A DNA stretch of 31,843 nucleotides from Oligoflexus sp. (GCA_041736305.1 JBGSTX010000333.1:1-31843), one strand, 5' to 3'; positions 7,631 through 31,843 are shown, counted from the stretch's first letter. Program-made: numbers and translations. Notes: a model not told the origin generated them from the letters alone.

Positions 7631-8278
7631 ATGAAGATCAATCGCCTGGTTCTAGCTTCCACTTCGATTTATCGGCGGCAGCTCCTCGAGCAGGTCGGTA
7701 TACGAGTCGATAGTGGACAGCCTCTTTGCGACGAGTCCGCCATAGGCGGAAAAAATCCCGAGGAAATCGCTAGAAACCGTAGCGAGGCCAAAGGCCTTTC
7801 CCTCAAATCTCTCGCCAATCAGGCCCCTTTTCTGGCTTTGGCGGCCGACCAAGTTCTCGACTTTCAGAACCAGGCCTACGGGAAGGCCTATAGTCGCCAA
7901 GAAGCAGCAGAGCGTCTGGCTCTCTTCCAAGGTAAAACTCATCTCCTTCACAGTGCCTATTGCCTCGTATACTACGACGGTCTCAGCCAAGCACGCATTC
8001 TCAAGAGTCGCGTAGTCTCTGCAAAAATGCACATGCGCAGATTAATGGATGATGAGATTGAAGCTTACCTGGATATCGGCGAGTGGCAAGGCTGTGCAGG
8101 TTCCTATCAGTACGAAAATCGGGGCATGCAGCTCTTCGATCGTTTGGAGGGTGATATGTCAACCGTTGTAGGTCTACCGCTGCCCCATCTTTTAGCTGAT
8201 TTGAGGGCTTTGGGTATCAACCCCCTTTTGCAAGCTGCGGGGCCTTGGGAGTGCGTAACAGCCCCGTCTTTTTCTTGA
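7631..8278 (+). CDS. maf: Maf-family nucleotide pyrophosphatase (YceF-like)
   Basis: LVLASTSIYRRQLL, AADQV, CAGSY and VVGLPL motifs. ATG 7631 follows GAGGAG. Confidence 0.9.
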   Translation: MKINRLVLASTSIYRRQLLEQVGIRVDSGQPLCDESAIGGKNPEEIARNRSEAKGLSLKSLANQAPFLALAADQVLDFQNQAYGKAYSRQEAAERLALFQGKTHLLHSAYCLVYYDGLSQARILKSRVVSAKMHMRRLMDDEIEAYLDIGEWQGCAGSYQYENRGMQLFDRLEGDMSTVVGLPLPHLLADLRALGINPLLQAAGPWECVTAPSFS

Positions 8279-8951
8279 GGCCAGAGGCTGTTTTGAGGGT
8301 TGGGAGTTGAGCGCTCGGACAGAGTTCATTCAGAACGCAGGTCGCACATGCAGGACTAATGGCTTTGCAAACGTAGCGTCCGTGCAAGAGAAGATAGTGG
8401 TGTGCTCCCGGTAGAAAGCTGGGGTCGATGATGGCGAGTAGCTGACGTTCAGCTTTTTCAGGCGTCGAAGCGTCCTGCAGACCAAGGCGCTTGCTCACGC
8501 GAAAGACATGCGTGTCGACGGCGAGAGTCGGTTCGTTGAAGAGTTCTCCTAGTATAACATTAGCCGTTTTACGACCAACGCCGGGCAGTTCCTCGAGTTC
8601 CTCGCGCGTCTTCGGAACACTTCCTGGGTAGCGATCCTGAATAATCTGACTCAATTTATGAACATTTTTAGCTTTGGTTGGTGCCAGTCCAATCGAGCGA
8701 ATGCGTTCCAAAAATCCAGCCTCGCCCCATTCCAAAACGTTCTCGGGCCCAAAGCCAGCATCATAAAGCGGCTGCATGACTCGATTGACCATCTTGTCGG
8801 TATTTTTCGCCGATAGAACGACGGAAACGAGGAGCTGAAAAGGAGTGAGGTAATAGAGCTCACAACGGGCATCCGGAATTGAGAGTCGGAGCCGTTCGAG
8901 GATAAGGTGGGCCCGAGTCCGCCTCTGATTTTTAGGGAGAAGGATGGGCAC
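8217..8951 (-). CDS. nth: Endonuclease III
   Basis: HhH motif LPGVGRKTANV, VDTHVFR and [4Fe-4S] motif C-x6-C-x2-C-x5-C (CKAISPACATCVLNELC). GTG start. Confidence 0.95.
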   Translation of the reverse strand: MPILLPKNQRRTRAHLILERLRLSIPDARCELYYLTPFQLLVSVVLSAKNTDKMVNRVMQPLYDAGFGPENVLEWGEAGFLERIRSIGLAPTKAKNVHKLSQIIQDRYPGSVPKTREELEELPGVGRKTANVILGELFNEPTLAVDTHVFRVSKRLGLQDASTPEKAERQLLAIIDPSFLPGAHHYLLLHGRYVCKAISPACATCVLNELCPSAQLPTLKTASGLKKKTGLLRTPKAPQLAKGG

Positions 8952-24125: not shown

Positions 24126-25934
24126 TTATATGTTGATGCTTTGCGGAATCCGCGACGGCAAAAGGTGGATGTAGGGGACATAGCGCGTCTGGTTCCGGCG
24201 CTCGATTTCCGCTTCAGCTGCTGCAAGGCGAGCCTTATGACGTGCGAGTGCTTCGCTAATCGGACCATCCGTAAAGTCTTTTAGAATGCCGTTTGGATGC
24301 TGATCATAATTGCCGTAGCTTGTGTAATTGATCCCAGCTAATACTGCGAGGATGCCCGCAGTAGTGACTCCAACTTCCAGAGGAGGAAGATTCTGCAACC
24401 AATCTTCTTCGGTATGGCCTAGACCTTTTGGTTCTGGAGTGAATCCCGCGAGAGGGTTGGCAGGCATAAAGGCCATGTCAGTCCCTTGGGTAAAGTTCAC
24501 TGCGGCGTGCTGAGGGCCTGCCGTAAACAAAACCATGGTCAAAATACCGACGAGGTCTTCGCGGCTTAGAACTTGACCAGGGGTATCGCCAAAGTCCTTA
24601 ACCATTCCACCTTCAGGAGACGCGAGTTCCGCTGCCCAAGCCTGGAGTTCCGTGTCGCTTGCGACTTCGGAATCGTTCTTGTAGAAAGTCGAAACAAATT
24701 CTTCGATCCATTTTTGAGTGAGATTCCAAATGAGCAGACCATCATCACGATAGGGGTAATGACGGAGGATGCTGGAATCCATTGTCCCGAGCCGGCGCAT
24801 ACGATCTGGTAGATAGTTAGAGCGGAACGAGTAGCCAAGGCGCGTATTTTTAACGAACTCGTAGGCTGAGGGCAGATCAGCTCCGATAAGCCGATCAACC
24901 GCTTTTTCCGGTTTGATAAGGACATTAGTAGCTGCAAAGTTGATCAGGATCGTGCCTTCGAAGTGGTGCGTGAGCAGCGCGCCTACGGGATGCCGCGTCG
25001 ATAGATTGCGGCGTGTAGACACTACAAAAGCATCCATAAGGTAATGCGTGAGGCCTAGGTGACTAGCCAATTCATGATGGGTGTTGTGAGCTGCCAAAAC
25101 GCAGTTCTTTGCGATCTTCCAGCTATAGCCATCAAGCGGTGTATAGATGATGCGATCTTCGGGGGTCGGCCCGGTTTGAATCGCGAAAGGACAGAGGCGT
25201 CCACCCCCACGCGGCACTGCGAAGGCAGCCCAGGGTGCATAGATGTACTTGGGAGTCTGGCCATAGTGCAGACCGTTCTTGAGTACGCTGAGGCCTGAGT
25301 GATCGACGACATAGATGCGACCTTCGCCTAGTGCGGTCTCAAGATCATCATCAGCAAACTCAGGAACGGTATGCAACTGCTGGTTGCTGATCGGAAAGTT
25401 AGCAGGGACTTCGTTCAGTCGTTTAATGACGTTGGGATTTGGGCCGGCAACGAAATTATTTGCGAAGCTTTCGTCGGTCTGGAAGCGAAGCGCGATCTCT
25501 GGCAAAGGCATGGTGGCGAAGATATCATTAAAATCTTTGAGGCTCTTGGCGGAGCCGAGGGTTGGTCCAAGATCGGGGAGGACACCGCGACCTAGGGTAG
25601 AGCCTATATCTCTGAAAGCTTGCAATGCTTTCGCTATATCTTTGCTATTGGCGCCTTTGAGAAATTGAGTCAACTCTTCAGGAGCAACGCTTTCTGGAAT
25701 GGCGTCTGAGTTGGAAGTATTATTCAGATACTTCGTAACGTTGGCGCTGACACGGAAGAGGACATCAACCAGTTGCCTTACCCACTCTGGTCCGTTTAGG
25801 TCAGCAGTTACTTGGGGAATTTGGTTGAGGGGAATGCCAACCGAGCGTTCGTAGCGATAAGCTTGTTGACGAGCAGCCAAGCGAGGCCACCTCAGGGCTG
25901 GAAGGTCTTTCTGGGGAATTTTGTACTGCGCCAT
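24126..25934 (-). CDS. Lipoxygenase
   Basis: WKIAK, HHELASHLGLTH, HAAVN and C-terminal IPQSINI give the full set of LOX iron ligands; also AGPNP and YPYRDDG. Confidence 0.95.
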   Translation of the reverse strand: MAQYKIPQKDLPALRWPRLAARQQAYRYERSVGIPLNQIPQVTADLNGPEWVRQLVDVLFRVSANVTKYLNNTSNSDAIPESVAPEELTQFLKGANSKDIAKALQAFRDIGSTLGRGVLPDLGPTLGSAKSLKDFNDIFATMPLPEIALRFQTDESFANNFVAGPNPNVIKRLNEVPANFPISNQQLHTVPEFADDDLETALGEGRIYVVDHSGLSVLKNGLHYGQTPKYIYAPWAAFAVPRGGGRLCPFAIQTGPTPEDRIIYTPLDGYSWKIAKNCVLAAHNTHHELASHLGLTHYLMDAFVVSTRRNLSTRHPVGALLTHHFEGTILINFAATNVLIKPEKAVDRLIGADLPSAYEFVKNTRLGYSFRSNYLPDRMRRLGTMDSSILRHYPYRDDGLLIWNLTQKWIEEFVSTFYKNDSEVASDTELQAWAAELASPEGGMVKDFGDTPGQVLSREDLVGILTMVLFTAGPQHAAVNFTQGTDMAFMPANPLAGFTPEPKGLGHTEEDWLQNLPPLEVGVTTAGILAVLAGINYTSYGNYDQHPNGILKDFTDGPISEALARHKARLAAAEAEIERRNQTRYVPYIHLLPSRIPQSINI

Positions 25935-26969: not shown

Positions 26970-27941
26970 TCAATGCAGAGACGGGTCGGGTAGCAGCGGG
27001 CCGATGATCTGCAGAGCCTGGTGTTCAACTTTGAAGCGAAAATCTCCCTGAGCAATTTTCTCTCCATCGCCCATAACGCAGATCTGCGCGGGCGAGGAGA
27101 TGCTAGCCTCTGATTTCACACACAAGGTTTCTTGCAGATGGGGGTGTTCCCTAGCTGTCAGGTAGGAAATGAAGAGCTTCAGATAGTGACTAAAGGTCTT
27201 TGCTCTGATGACGACTATCTCAATTTGACCATCATCCGGTTTAGCTTCAACGGTCCAGCGCATATTGCCGGCACCCATACTACCCACATTTGTAATCATG
27301 AGAGTTGAAGCACGTCTGACGTGAGGCTTGCCGTCGATCCTTAGCTGGAAGGTCCAGTGCTTCTTTTTGGCAATCAAGCGTGCGCCATTCCAAACATAGG
27401 CGAGACGGCCAAACATTTTCTTAGCTGGTGGTTCGGTATTCGATGCAATCCAAGAATAAGCACCAACGCTTACATGACAGAGGTAAACTTTGTTATCGAT
27501 GAGCATGAAATCGACCCAACGTAGGGAATGCGGCTGAAACAGCAGCTCGAGAGCTTCATCTAGATTAAGGGGAATGCCGAGTTCTCGGGCGAAAAGATTG
27601 GCGGTTCCGCTAGGAATCACGGCGAGGGGAAGTCCACGTCGCCAGGCCTCTGTGGCCACGGCTGCCACTGTGCCATCTCCTCCCGCAGCCACCAAGGCCT
27701 GAGCACCTGAACGGAGCCCTTCTTCGATGGCTTTGTCTAGAGGCTGGTCTTTCTCAACATAGGCAAAATCAATCTTTTTTCCATGCTCTCCGGCTTTTGC
27801 CAGGGCCAGGCTCTTGAGTTCCTCGCAGCGGCTGCTCCCGGAATTAGGATTGAGTACGAGGAGATAATGCTGAAACCCTGACGTATTGTCTTTCCCTTTA
27901 CTCTCGGGCTTGGCTTGACTATCTGTATAAAATGGAGTCAT
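26970..27941 (-). CDS. Diacylglycerol-kinase family lipid kinase (YegS/BmrU-like)
   Basis: LNPNSG, AAGGDGTV, IPSGTANLFAREL, DDG and DGE motifs. Start uncertain; ATG 27941 avoids overlap with the divergent gene. Confidence 0.9.
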   Translation of the reverse strand: MTPFYTDSQAKPESKGKDNTSGFQHYLLVLNPNSGSSRCEELKSLALAKAGEHGKKIDFAYVEKDQPLDKAIEEGLRSGAQALVAAGGDGTVAAVATEAWRRGLPLAVIPSGTANLFARELGIPLNLDEALELLFQPHSLRWVDFMLIDNKVYLCHVSVGAYSWIASNTEPPAKKMFGRLAYVWNGARLIAKKKHWTFQLRIDGKPHVRRASTLMITNVGSMGAGNMRWTVEAKPDDGQIEIVVIRAKTFSHYLKLFISYLTAREHPHLQETLCVKSEASISSPAQICVMGDGEKIAQGDFRFKVEHQALQIIGPLLPDPSLH

Positions 27942-27998
27942 CTTGGGGATGTTAGGGGAAGCTTCGAGAGAATTTCTATTTAGCTCCGAAGGAGCCTG

Positions 27999-28796
27999 AT
28001 GCGTTTCGTCCATATCTCTGACCTCCACTTCGGCCCCCATTATAGACCAGCCGTTGGTGAAAGTCTGCTTGACTACCTGGCGCAGGGGGCCTTTGATGCC
28101 GTCGTAATAACAGGTGATTTTACGCAGCGCGCAACGCGAGAACAGTTTGTTCAGGCTGGGTCTTTCCTCGAACGCTTGCGGAGCTTAGTACCCGAGGTCG
28201 TCGTCTGCCCTGGGAATCACGATATACCATTGTTTCGTATTTGGGAGCGGGTTTTTTATCCTTTTCGTCTCTATAAGAAATTCATTCATCCTCACTTAAA
28301 TCAAATTGTGGATATCCATGATGCCAGGATTATAGCGCTCAACAGTGTGCGTCCGCTGAAAAGGCTAGTAGAGGGCAGACTTAGCCGGCAGCAACTACGA
28401 CTCGTTCAGAGCAGCCTCTCCCAAAACCCACAGAAAATGTTTCGGATCCTAGCGCTGCACCATCCTCCCGATGTTTCGCATGATAGGCCGGTCATATCGT
28501 CGCGAGAAAGGGAGTTCGTCCGACTTTGCATCGAACAGAAAGTCGATATTGTACTGAGTGGTCACGTACATGTGTCACGAGTTTTGCCGCTGACGAGCTC
28601 TCCAGGAGGGGCTCCGCTCCTCGTAGGCTGCGGGACGACTACTTCTGGTCGCGGTCGGCAGGCTGAAAAGGACCGCAATACCTTCAGACTTATCGAAGGC
28701 GATGCGCAGGGGCTAACTATCAGCACCTTTGCACTTGAGCCGGGTACTAAGATTTTCGTAATCCTCGCCCGAGAAGATTATCCAAAACCGTTCTAG
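27999..28796 (+). CDS. Metallophosphoesterase (CpdA/Icc-like)
   Basis: HISDLHFG, TGD, PGNHD, HHP and GHVH motifs; GGAG RBS. Confidence 0.92.
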   Translation: MRFVHISDLHFGPHYRPAVGESLLDYLAQGAFDAVVITGDFTQRATREQFVQAGSFLERLRSLVPEVVVCPGNHDIPLFRIWERVFYPFRLYKKFIHPHLNQIVDIHDARIIALNSVRPLKRLVEGRLSRQQLRLVQSSLSQNPQKMFRILALHHPPDVSHDRPVISSREREFVRLCIEQKVDIVLSGHVHVSRVLPLTSSPGGAPLLVGCGTTTSGRGRQAEKDRNTFRLIEGDAQGLTISTFALEPGTKIFVILAREDYPKPF

Positions 28797-29013: not shown

Positions 29014-29685
29014 ATGGCTGCTTCATCGGCAAAAAAATTGTCTCATGCCAATTCCCCGACATCCCTCACCGAGCAGATTTGGGGAATCAGTTGGAACCAA
29101 CACTTCCCCAAGCCGCTGACGGCGACGATAAGAGTTGAAATGCGGAGCTACGAGGAGGCTTCTCCCCTCATAGCCCAGCTTTTTCCCGAAGTTTACCTGA
29201 TGGATGGCAAGTCACCGTTCGGGGAAAACAACAGTAAAGAATTCAAGAAAAAATACTATGAGATGGCAGGGGATTTCTTCGTCTTCCTTGATGCATCGAA
29301 GGGTGACAAGGTCGCTGGCATGGCGATAGGCACAGTACTCGACTGGTCTAGCTACAATTTTAGAAATATCTCGATCGCAGATGAATATCAGGAAAGCGGA
29401 CTCTATCTGAGCTTTTTTGAAGCCCTCTGCGATGTGATGAGGGAGCACGGCGTCAGTCGCATCGAAGGTGATGTAGCTCCTTCCAACCGCCACCATATTC
29501 ATGTGCTCAATAAGATGGGCTACATGGTGACAGCGATGAGTTACTCCGAGCGATGGGGCGTACTGCTGCACATAGCAAAGTACCTGAATCCGGACGATGA
29601 AGAGCGTTTTACTAAGCTTTTCTCAATGTCAGCCAACAGCGATCTCAAAGCGAATTCGCGGGCGAAAAAGCCCAAGAATTCATGA
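29014..29685 (+). CDS. GNAT-fold acyltransferase
   Basis: Motif-A-like NISIADEYQESGLY, motif-B-like DVAPSN...LNKMGY; AGGGG RBS. Confidence 0.7.
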   Translation: MAASSAKKLSHANSPTSLTEQIWGISWNQHFPKPLTATIRVEMRSYEEASPLIAQLFPEVYLMDGKSPFGENNSKEFKKKYYEMAGDFFVFLDASKGDKVAGMAIGTVLDWSSYNFRNISIADEYQESGLYLSFFEALCDVMREHGVSRIEGDVAPSNRHHIHVLNKMGYMVTAMSYSERWGVLLHIAKYLNPDDEERFTKLFSMSANSDLKANSRAKKPKNS

Positions 29686-29698
29686 AAAAACTCACTAG

Positions 29699-29725
29699 CC
29701 TTAAGCGATAGGCGCTTAAGGTTTT
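29699..29725 (+). terminator. Stem-loop/terminator after the GNAT gene
   Basis: CCTTAAGCG-ATAGG-CGCTTAAGG followed by TTTT. Confidence 0.6.
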
Positions 29726-29752
29726 ATATGCAACAAGTTTTAGGAGTCTGCC

Positions 29753-29785
29753 ATGAAAAAGAAATACGCGTTGATTTCGTTCTAA
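29753..29785 (+). CDS. 10-aa micro-ORF MKKKYALISF, candidate RiPP precursor
   Basis: AGGAG at 29742-29746, 6 nt before the ATG; TAA followed by a GC-rich hairpin; sits inside a GNAT-oxidase-YcaO cluster. Confidence 0.55.
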   Translation: MKKKYALISF

Positions 29786-29791
29786 TTTAAA

Positions 29792-29822
29792 GGCGGGTCG
29801 AAAGACCCGCCCCCTCTTCTTT
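29792..29822 (+). terminator. GC-rich hairpin after the micro-ORF (leaky terminator or stabilising stem)
   Basis: GGCGGGTC-GAAA-GACCCGCC (GNRA tetraloop) followed by the pyrimidine tract CCCTCTTCTTT. Confidence 0.65.
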
Positions 29823-29860
29823 CCCTGTACCACTTCCCGCAGTATACTTTGGAGGCGACT

Positions 29861-30541
29861 ATGGCTAACTCACTCTATGATCAGTTGACCAAGCGTATCG
29901 CGCAGCACTTCGAACAGATGAAAACAAAGAACACATTCTACCAGAGAATTTTCACCGGTAAGCTCACCGTCGATGAACTCGTTTTATTTATCAAAAATGT
30001 CAGCTATCTGACTTCCTATACGCCTGTTCATCTCAAGATGGCCCATGACGTGGCGCAGTCAAAGTCCTTGCATCAGCTAGCCGCCTATTTCAAATCCAAG
30101 CAGAAAGAAGAACAGGGCCACGACGAGTGGGGCAAGCAAGATATCCAAGGGATAGCGAGCCAGTTCGCTGTTTCTATCCAGAATGTACCTGTCCTCTCTG
30201 AAATGAAATCCTACGTGCTGGCCAATGAGAGCATGATCAAAAAAGATCCCTTTCTCTACTTTGTCTATATTCTCTATGCAGAATACTACACAGTTATCGC
30301 GGGCCCTGAGTCCCTTGCTGCAATTGAGAAGCACTGCAAGGTGCCCCAAGATCTGGTAAGCATCATTTCGAACCATGCGGAACTTGACAAGTATCACGTC
30401 GAAGATTGGGCACAAGAAGCTCGCGATGTTGGCCTTGATCCTAAATCGCTCCCGATCTACCTGACGAATCTCGATGAAATTCTGCAGCGCTACGATAACT
30501 TCTGCCAAGCCTTGAGTAGACGCCATGCAAACGTCGCCTAA
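29861..30541 (+). CDS. Heme-oxygenase-like di-iron oxidase (iron-containing redox enzyme; TenA/PqqC/CADD fold)
   Basis: Helical protein of about 226 aa with EEQGH (EExxH), a mid-sequence Glu (YAE) and HAELDKYH (HxxxDxxH) ligand motifs; GGAGG RBS. Confidence 0.8.
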   Translation: MANSLYDQLTKRIAQHFEQMKTKNTFYQRIFTGKLTVDELVLFIKNVSYLTSYTPVHLKMAHDVAQSKSLHQLAAYFKSKQKEEQGHDEWGKQDIQGIASQFAVSIQNVPVLSEMKSYVLANESMIKKDPFLYFVYILYAEYYTVIAGPESLAAIEKHCKVPQDLVSIISNHAELDKYHVEDWAQEARDVGLDPKSLPIYLTNLDEILQRYDNFCQALSRRHANVA

Positions 30542-31565
30542 AGATAAGCTACATGCAACTCAAATGCCTGCCGGTTGGAAATTGATCGACGAGCTGAATG
30601 AGAACGTCGATCTCTTCACAGCCAAAATTCAAATTGCGGGTAAGGCAGCGCAGCATGAGTTGCTCGGGACCAGCGTGACCGGCAGTTCGGCGAGCTGGAC
30701 GCAAAACCCCGAGGCTTTTGCCTACTTCGAACTTCTGGAACGGATGGCAATAGTTGAAGCCTTAGACAGGCACAAGTCTAATGAAGGCCAAGTTTGGCGA
30801 CTCATCGATCCTCATCGGGGCGGAAGTCGAGGCGAGGCAGTCGAGATTTTTCAGAATTCTTCCAAACCTGATATTTGGCAGCCATCGAAATCCAACGGCG
30901 TAGCCCTCGGTAGCAGCTGGCAGCACGCAAGCCAAAACGCAGTTTGCGAAGCGGTTGAGCGGCACCTGGTGCTGGCCTCTTGGTATGGTGCTTTGATACC
31001 TCAAAAGCTTGAAGCCGGGGCCCTGCCTCTCGCCCTCGCCCCACTTGCACGTCACTACAATGTTATGCATTATTCTTTCGGAGAATTGCCGACAGCCGCT
31101 ACACGGACTCCCGTCGCTGTCACAGGGACGTTCTTCTGGCCTCGGAAGCCGAATGCGCCGTTGATATATGGCTTTGGAGCCGGTCTTTCATCCAACGAAG
31201 CCCTGCAAAAGAGCCTGAAGGAAGCTGTCCAGCGCCTCAGTTTTCTAGATGGTGAAGAGGTTCCGGAAATCGAGCCTCTTTTCAGTCCCACTCCGGATTA
31301 TCATCAAGAATACTTCCTGCATCCGGAACGCCAAGAGGTTTTGAGCAAATGGCTGAGGGGTGAGTTTTTCAAAGGGAGCGAGAGCACTCAGCTTCTGGAT
31401 ACGCGGAACCCTGTGCAATTTGTAGATCTCACTCCGTCGACTCTCGAGACGCTAGTCGTCGTGAAGGCCCTTACACCGAGCCTTCTGCCTTTGTGCTTCG
31501 GGCGTTTCATCGATGAACGTTGTCCCGAGATCGAAGCCGATAGACTCATTCATCCGGTGGTTTAG
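30525..31565 (+). CDS. YcaO-family protein
   Basis: ATP/Mg motifs FELLER, SKSNGVALG and CEAVERH, plus GFGAG...EAVQ and a Pro-containing C-terminus IHPVV. Overlaps the oxidase gene by 17 nt. Confidence 0.85.
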   Translation: MQTSPKDKLHATQMPAGWKLIDELNENVDLFTAKIQIAGKAAQHELLGTSVTGSSASWTQNPEAFAYFELLERMAIVEALDRHKSNEGQVWRLIDPHRGGSRGEAVEIFQNSSKPDIWQPSKSNGVALGSSWQHASQNAVCEAVERHLVLASWYGALIPQKLEAGALPLALAPLARHYNVMHYSFGELPTAATRTPVAVTGTFFWPRKPNAPLIYGFGAGLSSNEALQKSLKEAVQRLSFLDGEEVPEIEPLFSPTPDYHQEYFLHPERQEVLSKWLRGEFFKGSESTQLLDTRNPVQFVDLTPSTLETLVVVKALTPSLLPLCFGRFIDERCPEIEADRLIHPVV

Positions 31566-31594: not shown

Positions 31595-31621
31595 GCCGGC
31601 CGACTGCCGGCTTTCGCTTTT
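31595..31621 (+). terminator. Terminator after the YcaO gene
   Basis: GCCGGC-CGACT-GCCGGC followed by TTTCGCTTTT. Confidence 0.6.
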
Positions 31622-31843
31622 AGGCTTTTTCAGATTCAGCAAGAACTGGGTTCCACGAGCTTCTTGATGAGCATCCCTTAGGAAAAGATTACCTCGGTAA
31701 ACCGTAAGCAGTTCACCTGCGCATAGAGACTAAGTCCACATTCCCAGCTAGGTTTAATTCCATCGAGAGAAACCGCGATGGAGACCGACTCAAATGAAAG
31801 CTTCCTTCAATCACGATTCCTGCCTTAAGTCCCTGGCTGCTGA

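Follow-up and report, generated by a model that had tools for sequence, protein, structure and literature searches.

A ten-codon gene beside oxidase and YcaO genes in Oligoflexus is very probably a precursor-type peptide gene of an undescribed family

The locus

A small open reading frame (ORF) encoding the peptide MKKKYALISF lies near the end of a 31,843-nucleotide (nt) stretch of DNA from Oligoflexus sp. (GCA_041736305.1 JBGSTX010000333.1:1-31843). This whole stretch is called the window, and positions are counted from its first letter. The small ORF is located between a gene for a GNAT-family acetyltransferase and a gene for a predicted heme-oxygenase-like di-metal oxidase (HDO), and a YcaO gene follows. 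Its conservation in related loci makes it very probable that the small ORF is a genuine peptide gene of the precursor type and that its family is undescribed. The features of the set are the following.

29014-29685, plus strand: gene of a GNAT-family acetyltransferase, 223 amino acids (aa), the first of the conserved set (PF00583 at 1.1e-06)
29698-29725, plus strand: hairpin 1 (arms 29699-29707 and 29713-29721, loop ATAGG) with a T-run, -14.0 kcal/mol when folded alone
29742-29746, plus strand: Shine-Dalgarno (SD) sequence AGGAG of the small ORF, 6 nt 5' of the ATG
29753-29785, plus strand: small ORF MKKKYALISF, 10 codons and TAA, the proposed precursor peptide; its motif, position and codon pattern are kept in 34 of 38 related loci
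29792-29821, plus strand: hairpin 2 (GGCGGGTC GAAA GACCCGCC; arms 29792-29799 and 29804-29811) with the pyrimidine-rich tail CCCTCTTCTT, terminator-like and reported by the terminator scan, -17.0 kcal/mol when folded alone
29851-29855, plus strand: SD sequence GGAGG of the HDO gene, which pairs with CCCUCU (29812-29817) in the minimum-energy fold
29861-30541, plus strand: gene of the predicted HDO, 226 aa (family profile, structural model, invariant motif)
30525-31565, plus strand: YcaO gene, 346 aa (PF02624 at 8e-17), with a 17-nt overlap with the end of the HDO gene
31595-31611, plus strand: terminator-like hairpin, 30 nt past the YcaO stop

An earlier note on this DNA had described an AGGAG-N6-ATG start, the 10-codon ORF, and a hairpin on each side of it. 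All of these are present, and their coordinates needed small corrections. The 6-nt spacer between AGGAG and the ATG at 29753 is TCTGCC, and the TAA ends at 29785. The operon probably ends at the hairpin at 31595-31611. Past this point, a converging minus-strand ORF, represented by a 42-residue 3' fragment (31713-31841), ends at 31713.

Taken alone, the window gives only a weak signal for the small ORF and its folds, and this signal is not beyond chance. The pattern AGGAG-N5-9-ATG occurs 10 times in the window against an expected 6.14 +/- 2.43, and 10 of 100 shuffled sequences reach 10. The fold of the 180-nt spacer has a z-score of -2.12, with 4 of 200 shuffles at least as stable.

Conservation of the peptide ORF

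Related loci were collected by a scan with the HDO alignment, keeping one genome per species. This gave 38 loci (L numbers below) from Oligoflexus and other Oligoflexales, Polyangiaceae, Labilithrix, Sorangium, Bdellovibrionota, and one Sulfitobacter metagenome-assembled genome (MAG). The region up to 600 nt upstream of each HDO gene was searched on the same strand for the pattern [K/R][K/R/N]0-3-[F/Y/W]-[A/S]-x-x-[S/T/C]-x-stop. A matching ORF is found just 5' of the HDO gene in 34 of the 38 loci and in the window, that is, in 35 of 39 sources. Elsewhere in these sequences, the pattern occurs 14 times in 446,201 bases read in six frames, and about 0.01 matches are expected per locus interval. 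The motif ORF is therefore found far beyond chance. Some of the off-target matches, which read ...KYSxxSx-stop, lie on the minus strand within the HDO genes of L006, L016, L018, L022, and L027. They were rejected as genes because they are the reverse complement of a conserved HDO block, AEY[FY]TV, and thus an artefact of the pattern.

The peptides share the signature M-K-K-(K/R)-[F/Y]-A-x-x-[S/T/C]-hydrophobic-stop, mostly in 9 or 10 residues. The 35 copies comprise 33 distinct peptides, such as MKKFATLSF, MKKFARSTL, MKKKFAQHCL, MKKRFALSTF, and MKKFALISL. Eighteen copies have 9 residues and 15 have 10; one has 12 and one has 16. The aromatic position that is Tyr5 in the window is Phe in 30 of the 35 copies, so a reaction specific for a phenol at this residue appears unlikely. 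The penultimate position, Ser9 in the window, is Thr in 14 copies, Cys in 12, and Ser in 9. Ser9 had been singled out as the residue that a YcaO enzyme could cyclize, and the comparison agrees with this choice, as the position is always Thr, Cys, or Ser. This is imposed in part by the search pattern, and it holds also in two variants outside the pattern, which have Thr (L038) and Cys (L025). What is independent of the pattern is that almost every locus has a match at one and the same place and, in addition, the codon usage described below.

Four loci lack a pattern match. L038 has the variant MKKYGFVTV at the same place. In L025 (Sorangium sp. So ce1128, a complete genome; 5851-6672), the ORF starts as MKKYATLC and, lacking a stop codon, stays open for 45 codons and enters the HDO gene in frame. 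A natural fusion, decay of the copy, or an error of sequencing could explain this. The gene order of L025 is HDO-YcaO-GNAT, with an integrase gene 1 kb further on. The contig of L021 ends 51 nt ahead of the HDO gene, and L001 is a true absence. The earlier note had proposed beforehand that a ribosome binding site (RBS) with an MKK.. ORF should be sought at the same position in orthologous clusters. The outcome is clearly in favor of the ORF: it is present in 34 of 38 loci, with two variants, one cut contig, and one absence.

Selection on the peptide and tandem copies

All 35 copies have an SD-like word 5-18 nt upstream of the start codon. The position relative to the GNAT gene was assessed in the 24 sources with an upstream GNAT gene, leaving out five loci in which the GNAT frame runs through the ORF. 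The start of the ORF overlaps the GNAT stop codon (ATGA or GTGA) in 11 of these and lies 0-40 nt behind it in 9 more.

Most variation within the conserved codons falls on third positions. The near-invariant Ala is encoded by GCA (14 copies), GCT (8), GCC (6), and GCG (6), giving an entropy of 1.92 bits at the third position versus 0-0.19 at the first two. Ser at position -2 is written with AGY as well as with TCN codons. The stop codon is TGA in 19 copies, TAA in 13, and TAG in 3. The two residues ahead of the Ser/Thr/Cys position are variable, with 11 and 9 different residues, between fixed flanks. Judged by its codons, the ORF shows selection at the level of the peptide.

In L002 (5448-5958), at least five copies of the ORF stand in tandem, in repeat units of ~70 nt. 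They encode one peptide and have synonymous differences only. The repeats are partly N-masked, and the masked stretches may hide further copies. Behind the last copy stands a terminator hairpin of the classical kind. In L019 (5742-6000), the spacer between the ORF and the HDO gene contains a 52-nt, hairpin-containing element twice, once on each side of an N gap. The second copy is preceded by the apparent decayed end of another ORF copy.

The oxidase

The 226-residue protein of the window, searched alone, has no Pfam or NCBIfam match, and a PDB search returned chance-level matches only. A word-indexed search of 5.8 billion proteins found seven relatives. The four closest, P0002-P0005, are 54-75% identical and come from metagenome collections. 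A profile of the family matches PDB entry 3dde at 9.8e-18, followed by CADD/4-aminobenzoate synthase and UndA. The AlphaFold2 (AF2) model has a predicted local distance difference test score (pLDDT) of 96.1, and Foldseek aligns it with 3dde at a template modeling (TM) score of 0.81 and with CADD at 0.75. Residues E83, E84, H87, E141, H172, D176, and H179 are invariant in 44 HDO sequences, and the EExGH and HxxxDxxH motifs align with those of 3dde and CADD. We take these residues to be metal ligands (three His, three or four carboxylates). PF14518 is matched by 34 of the 44 family members, the best at 8.3e-10, and not by the window protein. Profile, modeled fold, and invariant motif together identify the 226-residue protein, by prediction, as an HDO with the seven-helix fold. 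With 345 clusters (50% identity) that match its profile at E <= 1e-30, the HDO family is fairly widespread.

YcaO, the acetyltransferase, and the composition of the cassette

The profile of the YcaO family matches TruD at 3.8e-10, then MusD and LynD (to 9.8e-08), and then archaeal YcaO proteins of the thioamide type. The ELxER, SNG, and ELxERD motifs show little or no variation and line up with TruD, and the C-terminus reads HP(I/V)x. The residues of these motifs presumably bind adenosine triphosphate (ATP) and Mg. The protein is a bare domain of 346 residues with no fused partner, and the NCBIfam model TOMM_cyclo_SagD gives it 56.9 bits against a cut-off of 219. YcaO follows the HDO gene in 34 of the 38 loci, 33 of them found by blastp and one as a partial gene at a contig end.

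A GNAT homologue adjoins the HDO gene in 30 of the 38 loci. The AF2 model of the window GNAT has a pLDDT of 86.4, and its nearest PDB folds are the polyamine acetyltransferases PaiA and SpeG and N-alpha acetyltransferases.

Fused proteins occur among the best 150 representatives of the HDO family. HDO-YcaO fusions are P0024 and P0107 (559 and 558 aa) and the truncated P0040 (416 aa), and P0038 (414 aa) is an HDO-GNAT fusion. These fusions indicate that the three enzymes belong together. No further gene family is conserved around the set in the 38 loci, in which 155 flanking ORFs were scanned and ORFs under 70 aa were not clustered. Neither a flavin mononucleotide (FMN) azoline dehydrogenase nor an E1-like/Ocin-ThiF partner was found among the 155 flanking ORFs or the conserved clusters.

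The hairpins

Hairpin 2 is GC-rich, has fully (100%) complementary arms of 8 nt and a GAAA loop, starts 6 nt past the stop codon of the small ORF, and is followed by CCCTCTTCTT. Of 33 assessable loci, 22 have an uninterrupted stem of 7 or more pairs in the first 60 nt past the ORF stop. The stem is kept while its sequence differs among loci. In 16 of the 33 loci, the folding energy behind the stop ranks among the lowest 5% when set against 200 random windows of the same locus. At least four T residues lie in the 10 nt after the stem in 15 of the 22 loci with a stem. The downstream hairpin is thus a frequent, not universal, feature of the family. [quoted passage not shown]

Hairpin 1 also has fully (100%) complementary arms, of 9 nt, with a loop of 5 nt and then TTTTATAT. 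It occurs only once in the window. It has the look of an intrinsic terminator for the GNAT gene and, on present comparison, would be specific to the window. There, the spacer between the GNAT gene and the ORF is 67 nt; in the 38 compared loci, which do not include the contigs of the near relatives P0002-P0005, no spacer of the hairpin 1 type is found, and the start of the ORF overlaps or adjoins the stop of the GNAT gene. The terminator scan lists hairpin 2 and omits hairpin 1 despite the TTTTATAT behind it. Of the two hairpins said to bracket the ORF, both are thus present in the window, but the upstream one is not a feature of the family.

An Rfam scan of the whole window at gathering scores gave 0 matches, so no known riboswitch or leader family applies. 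In the minimum-energy fold, the CCCUCU tract just 3' of hairpin 2 is joined to the GGAGG ahead of the HDO gene (29812-29855 of the window), and a similar pairing is seen in L017. In this predicted fold, the pairing could damp translation of the enzyme genes.

Comparison with known systems

Among published systems, the thiovarsolin cluster of Streptomyces varsoviensis, varA/varY/varT/varO, comes closest (PMC6511847). A YcaO and a heme-oxygenase-like protein act there on a ribosomal peptide. Thiovarsolins are tripeptides that are N-acetylated; the backbone amide adjoining their C-terminal residue is modified, and this residue has a side-chain desaturation that is ascribed to VarO (PMC6511847). 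The precursor carries several core copies and is comparable in this respect with the tandem ORFs of L002 (PMC6511847). The differences are several. The var pathway needs TfuA and makes a thioamide, whereas no TfuA was found among the 155 flanking ORFs here. The precursor VarA is long and has both a leader and internal repeats, whereas the ORF here has 9-10 residues. Acetylation in the var system is ascribed to a host enzyme, whereas a GNAT gene is part of the cassette here. The var cluster is from Actinobacteria and the present loci are from Oligoflexia and Myxococcota, and VarO and the HDO are set side by side by description, not by sequence. In the literature searched, VarO, for which there is genetics only, is the sole HDO-type enzyme acting on a ribosomal peptide.

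The microcin C gene mccA has 7 codons and an intrinsic terminator hairpin, which gives an abundant, stable short transcript and minor read-through and controls how much peptide is made relative to enzyme (PMC4231749). The mccA gene resembles the small ORF in being among the shortest genes, with a hairpin directly behind it and ahead of the enzyme genes (PMC4231749). In microcin C, the C-terminal residue is the modified one. The enzymes differ: MccB is an adenylyltransferase of the ThiF/E1 type, whereas those here are YcaO and HDO, and no MccB-type ThiF/E1 domain was found in the window genes or the locus flanks. The GNAT domain of MccE gives self-immunity to microcin C.

Biarylitides are made from 5-residue precursors that are cross-linked by a cytochrome P450 (PMC12951456, PMC13417212). 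The likeness is an ultra-short, leaderless ORF that is missed by automatic gene calling and stands directly before the modifying enzyme; such systems also occur in myxobacteria (myxarylin). Their chemistry is an aryl cross-link made by a P450, whereas the enzymes here are unrelated and the aromatic position is mostly Phe.

Among YcaO proteins, the cyanobactin heterocyclases TruD, LynD, and MusD align with the window protein over the core motifs (SNG, ELxERD, E..Q; E = 3.8e-10 to 9.8e-08). They cyclodehydrate Cys, Ser, and Thr to azolines. They are fusions of ~780 residues whose E1-like/RiPP recognition element (RRE) part reads a leader, whereas the YcaO here is a bare domain and the peptide is leaderless. 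YcaO proteins without a partner are known from bottromycin. Linear azole peptide systems have an E1-like partner and an FMN dehydrogenase; neither was found in the flanks here, so the cassette is not of the usual type. The tiarin/trifolitoxin family, which combines YcaO and GNAT, was considered and rejected because the dehydrogenase pair that defines it, TfxB/TfxC, is absent from the flanks.

The known HDO members CADD, UndA, and 3dde match in fold (TM 0.75-0.81), but their identity is 13-17%. To our knowledge, the substrates of known members are free small molecules or residues of the enzymes themselves, and we know of no HDO enzyme with a biochemically shown peptide substrate. No description of a YcaO-HDO-GNAT cassette with a 9-10-residue ORF was found in the full-text literature searched, which left subscription journals and supplements outside.

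Proposed function

The reading that we favor, at a probability of roughly three in four, is that the ORF at 29753-29785 is a real, translated gene and that MKKKYALISF is the substrate of the neighboring enzymes in an undescribed, RiPP-like GNAT-peptide-HDO-YcaO cassette. In the manner of a RiPP precursor, the short ORF stands beside enzyme genes and is conserved with them, and it has translation signals and selection on the peptide. The YcaO domain has the core motifs of azoline-forming enzymes, and the putative substrate has a Ser, Thr, or Cys. The length of the peptide leaves no room for a classical leader, and no leader or follower of the RiPP kind is present. The division into an MKKK leader and a YALISF core, put forward in the earlier note, is a hypothesis. 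The family may be placed among YcaO-associated ribosomal peptides, in which the missing leader, the bare YcaO, and the di-metal oxidase would be unusual.

The peptide would be made from its own strong SD sequence, and in most relatives, its start would be coupled to the GNAT stop codon. YcaO, with ATP, would activate the backbone amide between Ile8 and Ser9, and Ser9 would then close on it to form an oxazoline. The position of Ser, Thr, or Cys one residue from the C-terminus, together with a YcaO whose nearest relatives form azolines, points to cyclodehydration at this site. The Thr and Cys relatives would give a methyloxazoline or a thiazoline. The O2-dependent di-metal HDO would oxidize the C-terminal part, by analogy with VarO; the azoline may be converted to an azole, or the last residue may be desaturated or decarboxylated. 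GNAT may acetylate a free amine (the N-terminus or a Lys) of the Lys-rich peptide, either as tailoring or for self-protection. An analogue of a protective role would be TfxH, which protects from trifolitoxin. The hairpin 6 nt past the stop would serve as a partial terminator and 3' stabilizer, by analogy with mccA, and leave peptide mRNA in excess over enzyme mRNA.

A more specific version has, in our estimate, slightly less than an even chance. Here, the leaderless peptide of 9-10 residues would be read directly by the bare YcaO and the HDO, and the product would be a C-terminally heterocyclized and oxidized mini-peptide of an undescribed class, spread across Oligoflexia, Bdellovibrionota, and Polyangiaceae. 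Such a product may be a diffusible signal for the adjoining histidine kinases.

Several observations weigh against the peptide as an enzyme substrate. The whole case is comparative sequence analysis, from which the substrate role, the chemical steps, and the role of the hairpin are all deduced. The fixed K, F/Y, A, and S/T/C positions are imposed in part by the search pattern. L001 has the closest genome relatives of the window GNAT (55%) and HDO (46%), and it has neither the peptide nor a YcaO. L005, L034, and L035 have GNAT, peptide, and HDO genes with no YcaO gene by tblastn of the fetched DNA, which extends only 569 nt past the HDO gene in L034. In these three loci, YcaO is therefore either dispensable or encoded elsewhere, and the link of the peptide with the HDO is at least as tight as that with YcaO. 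GNAT is not beside the HDO gene in 7 assessable loci, and the post-ORF hairpin is absent or weak in 11 of 33. No conserved RRE, E1-like partner, protease, or exporter was found in the flanks, an uncommon situation among RiPPs that gives no account of recognition or export. In the window itself, a terminator-like hairpin lies between the GNAT gene and the ORF, and a promoter scan from hairpin 1 to the ORF found no promoter-like site, with counts in the region equal to the shuffle expectation.

L001 (5329-6675) contains GNAT and HDO genes 3 nt apart, with neither a small ORF nor YcaO. On another contig of the same MAG, L004 (557-2333) contains the small ORF, HDO, and YcaO without GNAT. These half-sets may cooperate in trans.

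With the peptide as the substrate, this RiPP family would have one of the shortest precursors known; gene callers miss these ORFs. A YcaO would then select its substrate without a leader peptide or partner protein, and the HDO family would gain a peptide substrate. The pairing of YcaO with a heme-oxygenase-like di-metal oxidase is otherwise known only genetically, from the thiovarsolins. With 345 HDO clusters, the family is found in predatory and social bacteria of chemical interest, and its 33 natural peptide variants are a ready-made substrate panel.

Alternative explanations

The foremost alternative, which we regard as unlikely, is a cis-regulatory leader peptide. Translation of the ORF, or a stalled ribosome on it, would set termination at the hairpin or masking of the HDO RBS, and the enzymes would act on another substrate. 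Conserved arrest peptides are known. The terminator-like hairpin lies 6 nt past the stop in the window and 1-26 nt past it in other loci, where a terminating ribosome would cover the 5' arm. The CCCUCU behind hairpin 2 pairs with the SD sequence GGAGG in the minimum-energy fold, and a typical RiPP leader, RRE, protease, or exporter was not found. A weak alternative pairing also exists between the 5' arm of hairpin 2 and the SD-ATG spacer, but in the window, where it was computed, it is far weaker than hairpin 2 itself (-9.2 versus -17.0 kcal/mol). A leader peptide would be expected as a single copy, whereas L002 has at least five in tandem. It would be expected at the 5' end, whereas the ORF is mid-operon in 20 of 24 sources (overlapping the GNAT stop or within 40 nt of it). 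A variable residue pair beside fixed flanks is the pattern of a RiPP core and not of an arrest motif, and a Ser, Thr, or Cys beside a YcaO gene is a feature of a substrate. Moreover, 11 of the 33 loci have no hairpin or a weak one. The earlier note had named an attenuator as its own alternative; the tandem copies, mid-operon position, and variable pair disfavor it, and the hairpin and RBS pairing keep some support for it.

Slightly less probable still is that the peptide binds the enzymes and is not the final product. It would be a reusable scaffold that releases its modified C-terminal residue, or the precursor of a cofactor or signal kept by the cell. Pyrroloquinoline quinone (PQQ) and mycofactocin are peptide-derived cofactors. 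No exporter or protease is conserved in the flanks, conservation is concentrated in the MKK(K/R)[F/Y]A handle and the last two residues, and the cassette of the window stands among ordinary chromosomal genes. Signaling genes within 3 kb in 17 of the 38 loci, with one histidine-kinase family adjoining in 7, would also fit, but these neighbors may be there by chance, as myxobacteria and their relatives are rich in such genes and the counts have no control. The window sequence has no such kinase. None of the points in favor is direct evidence, and the pair of variable residues points to a diversified product, not to a single cofactor.

Within the window alone, where the SD-ATG pattern and the fold are not significant, the ORF could be an open frame that arose by chance between two terminators. 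This reading is refuted by the motif, which recurs at the same place in 35 of 39 sources where about 0.01 matches per locus are expected, and by a codon pattern that reflects selection on the peptide.

Neighboring genes

Upstream of the cassette, the window contains a bacterial lipoxygenase gene (24126-25934, minus strand; PF00305 at 9.4e-48), a DAGK/YegS-type lipid kinase gene (26970-28040, minus strand), and a calcineurin-like phosphoesterase gene (27999-28796, plus strand), which matches NCBIfam anti-phage models far under their cut-offs. None of the three is kept beside the cassette in other loci. The phosphoesterase was considered as a member of the set and rejected, with a homologue in 0 of the 38 loci.

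Five clusters of flanking ORFs (in 27, 23, 14, 13, and 11 loci) are wholly on the minus strand, and two examples that were scanned have no Pfam family. They are taken as putative shadow ORFs of GC-rich DNA.

The signaling genes within 3 kb of the cassette include histidine kinases, response regulators, Ser/Thr kinases with AAA_16, EAL-REC proteins, and cyclases. They are found in L005-L007, L010, L012, L016-L019, L022-L024, L032, L033, and L035-L037. The kinase family that adjoins the cassette in 7 loci of different lineages has ~540-600 aa, and a homologous response regulator is near in 6. The 42-residue fragment at 31713-31841 of the window does not match this family. A histidine kinase stands in the place of YcaO in L005 and L035. 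In L002, a methyltransferase gene (7732-8490) lies behind YcaO. L003, L008, and L011 (Polyangiaceae/Myxococcales) have two further genes upstream of the cassette GNAT on the same strand, one for an Xaa-Pro aminopeptidase (M24 with AMP_N) and one for a GNAT that differs from that of the cassette.

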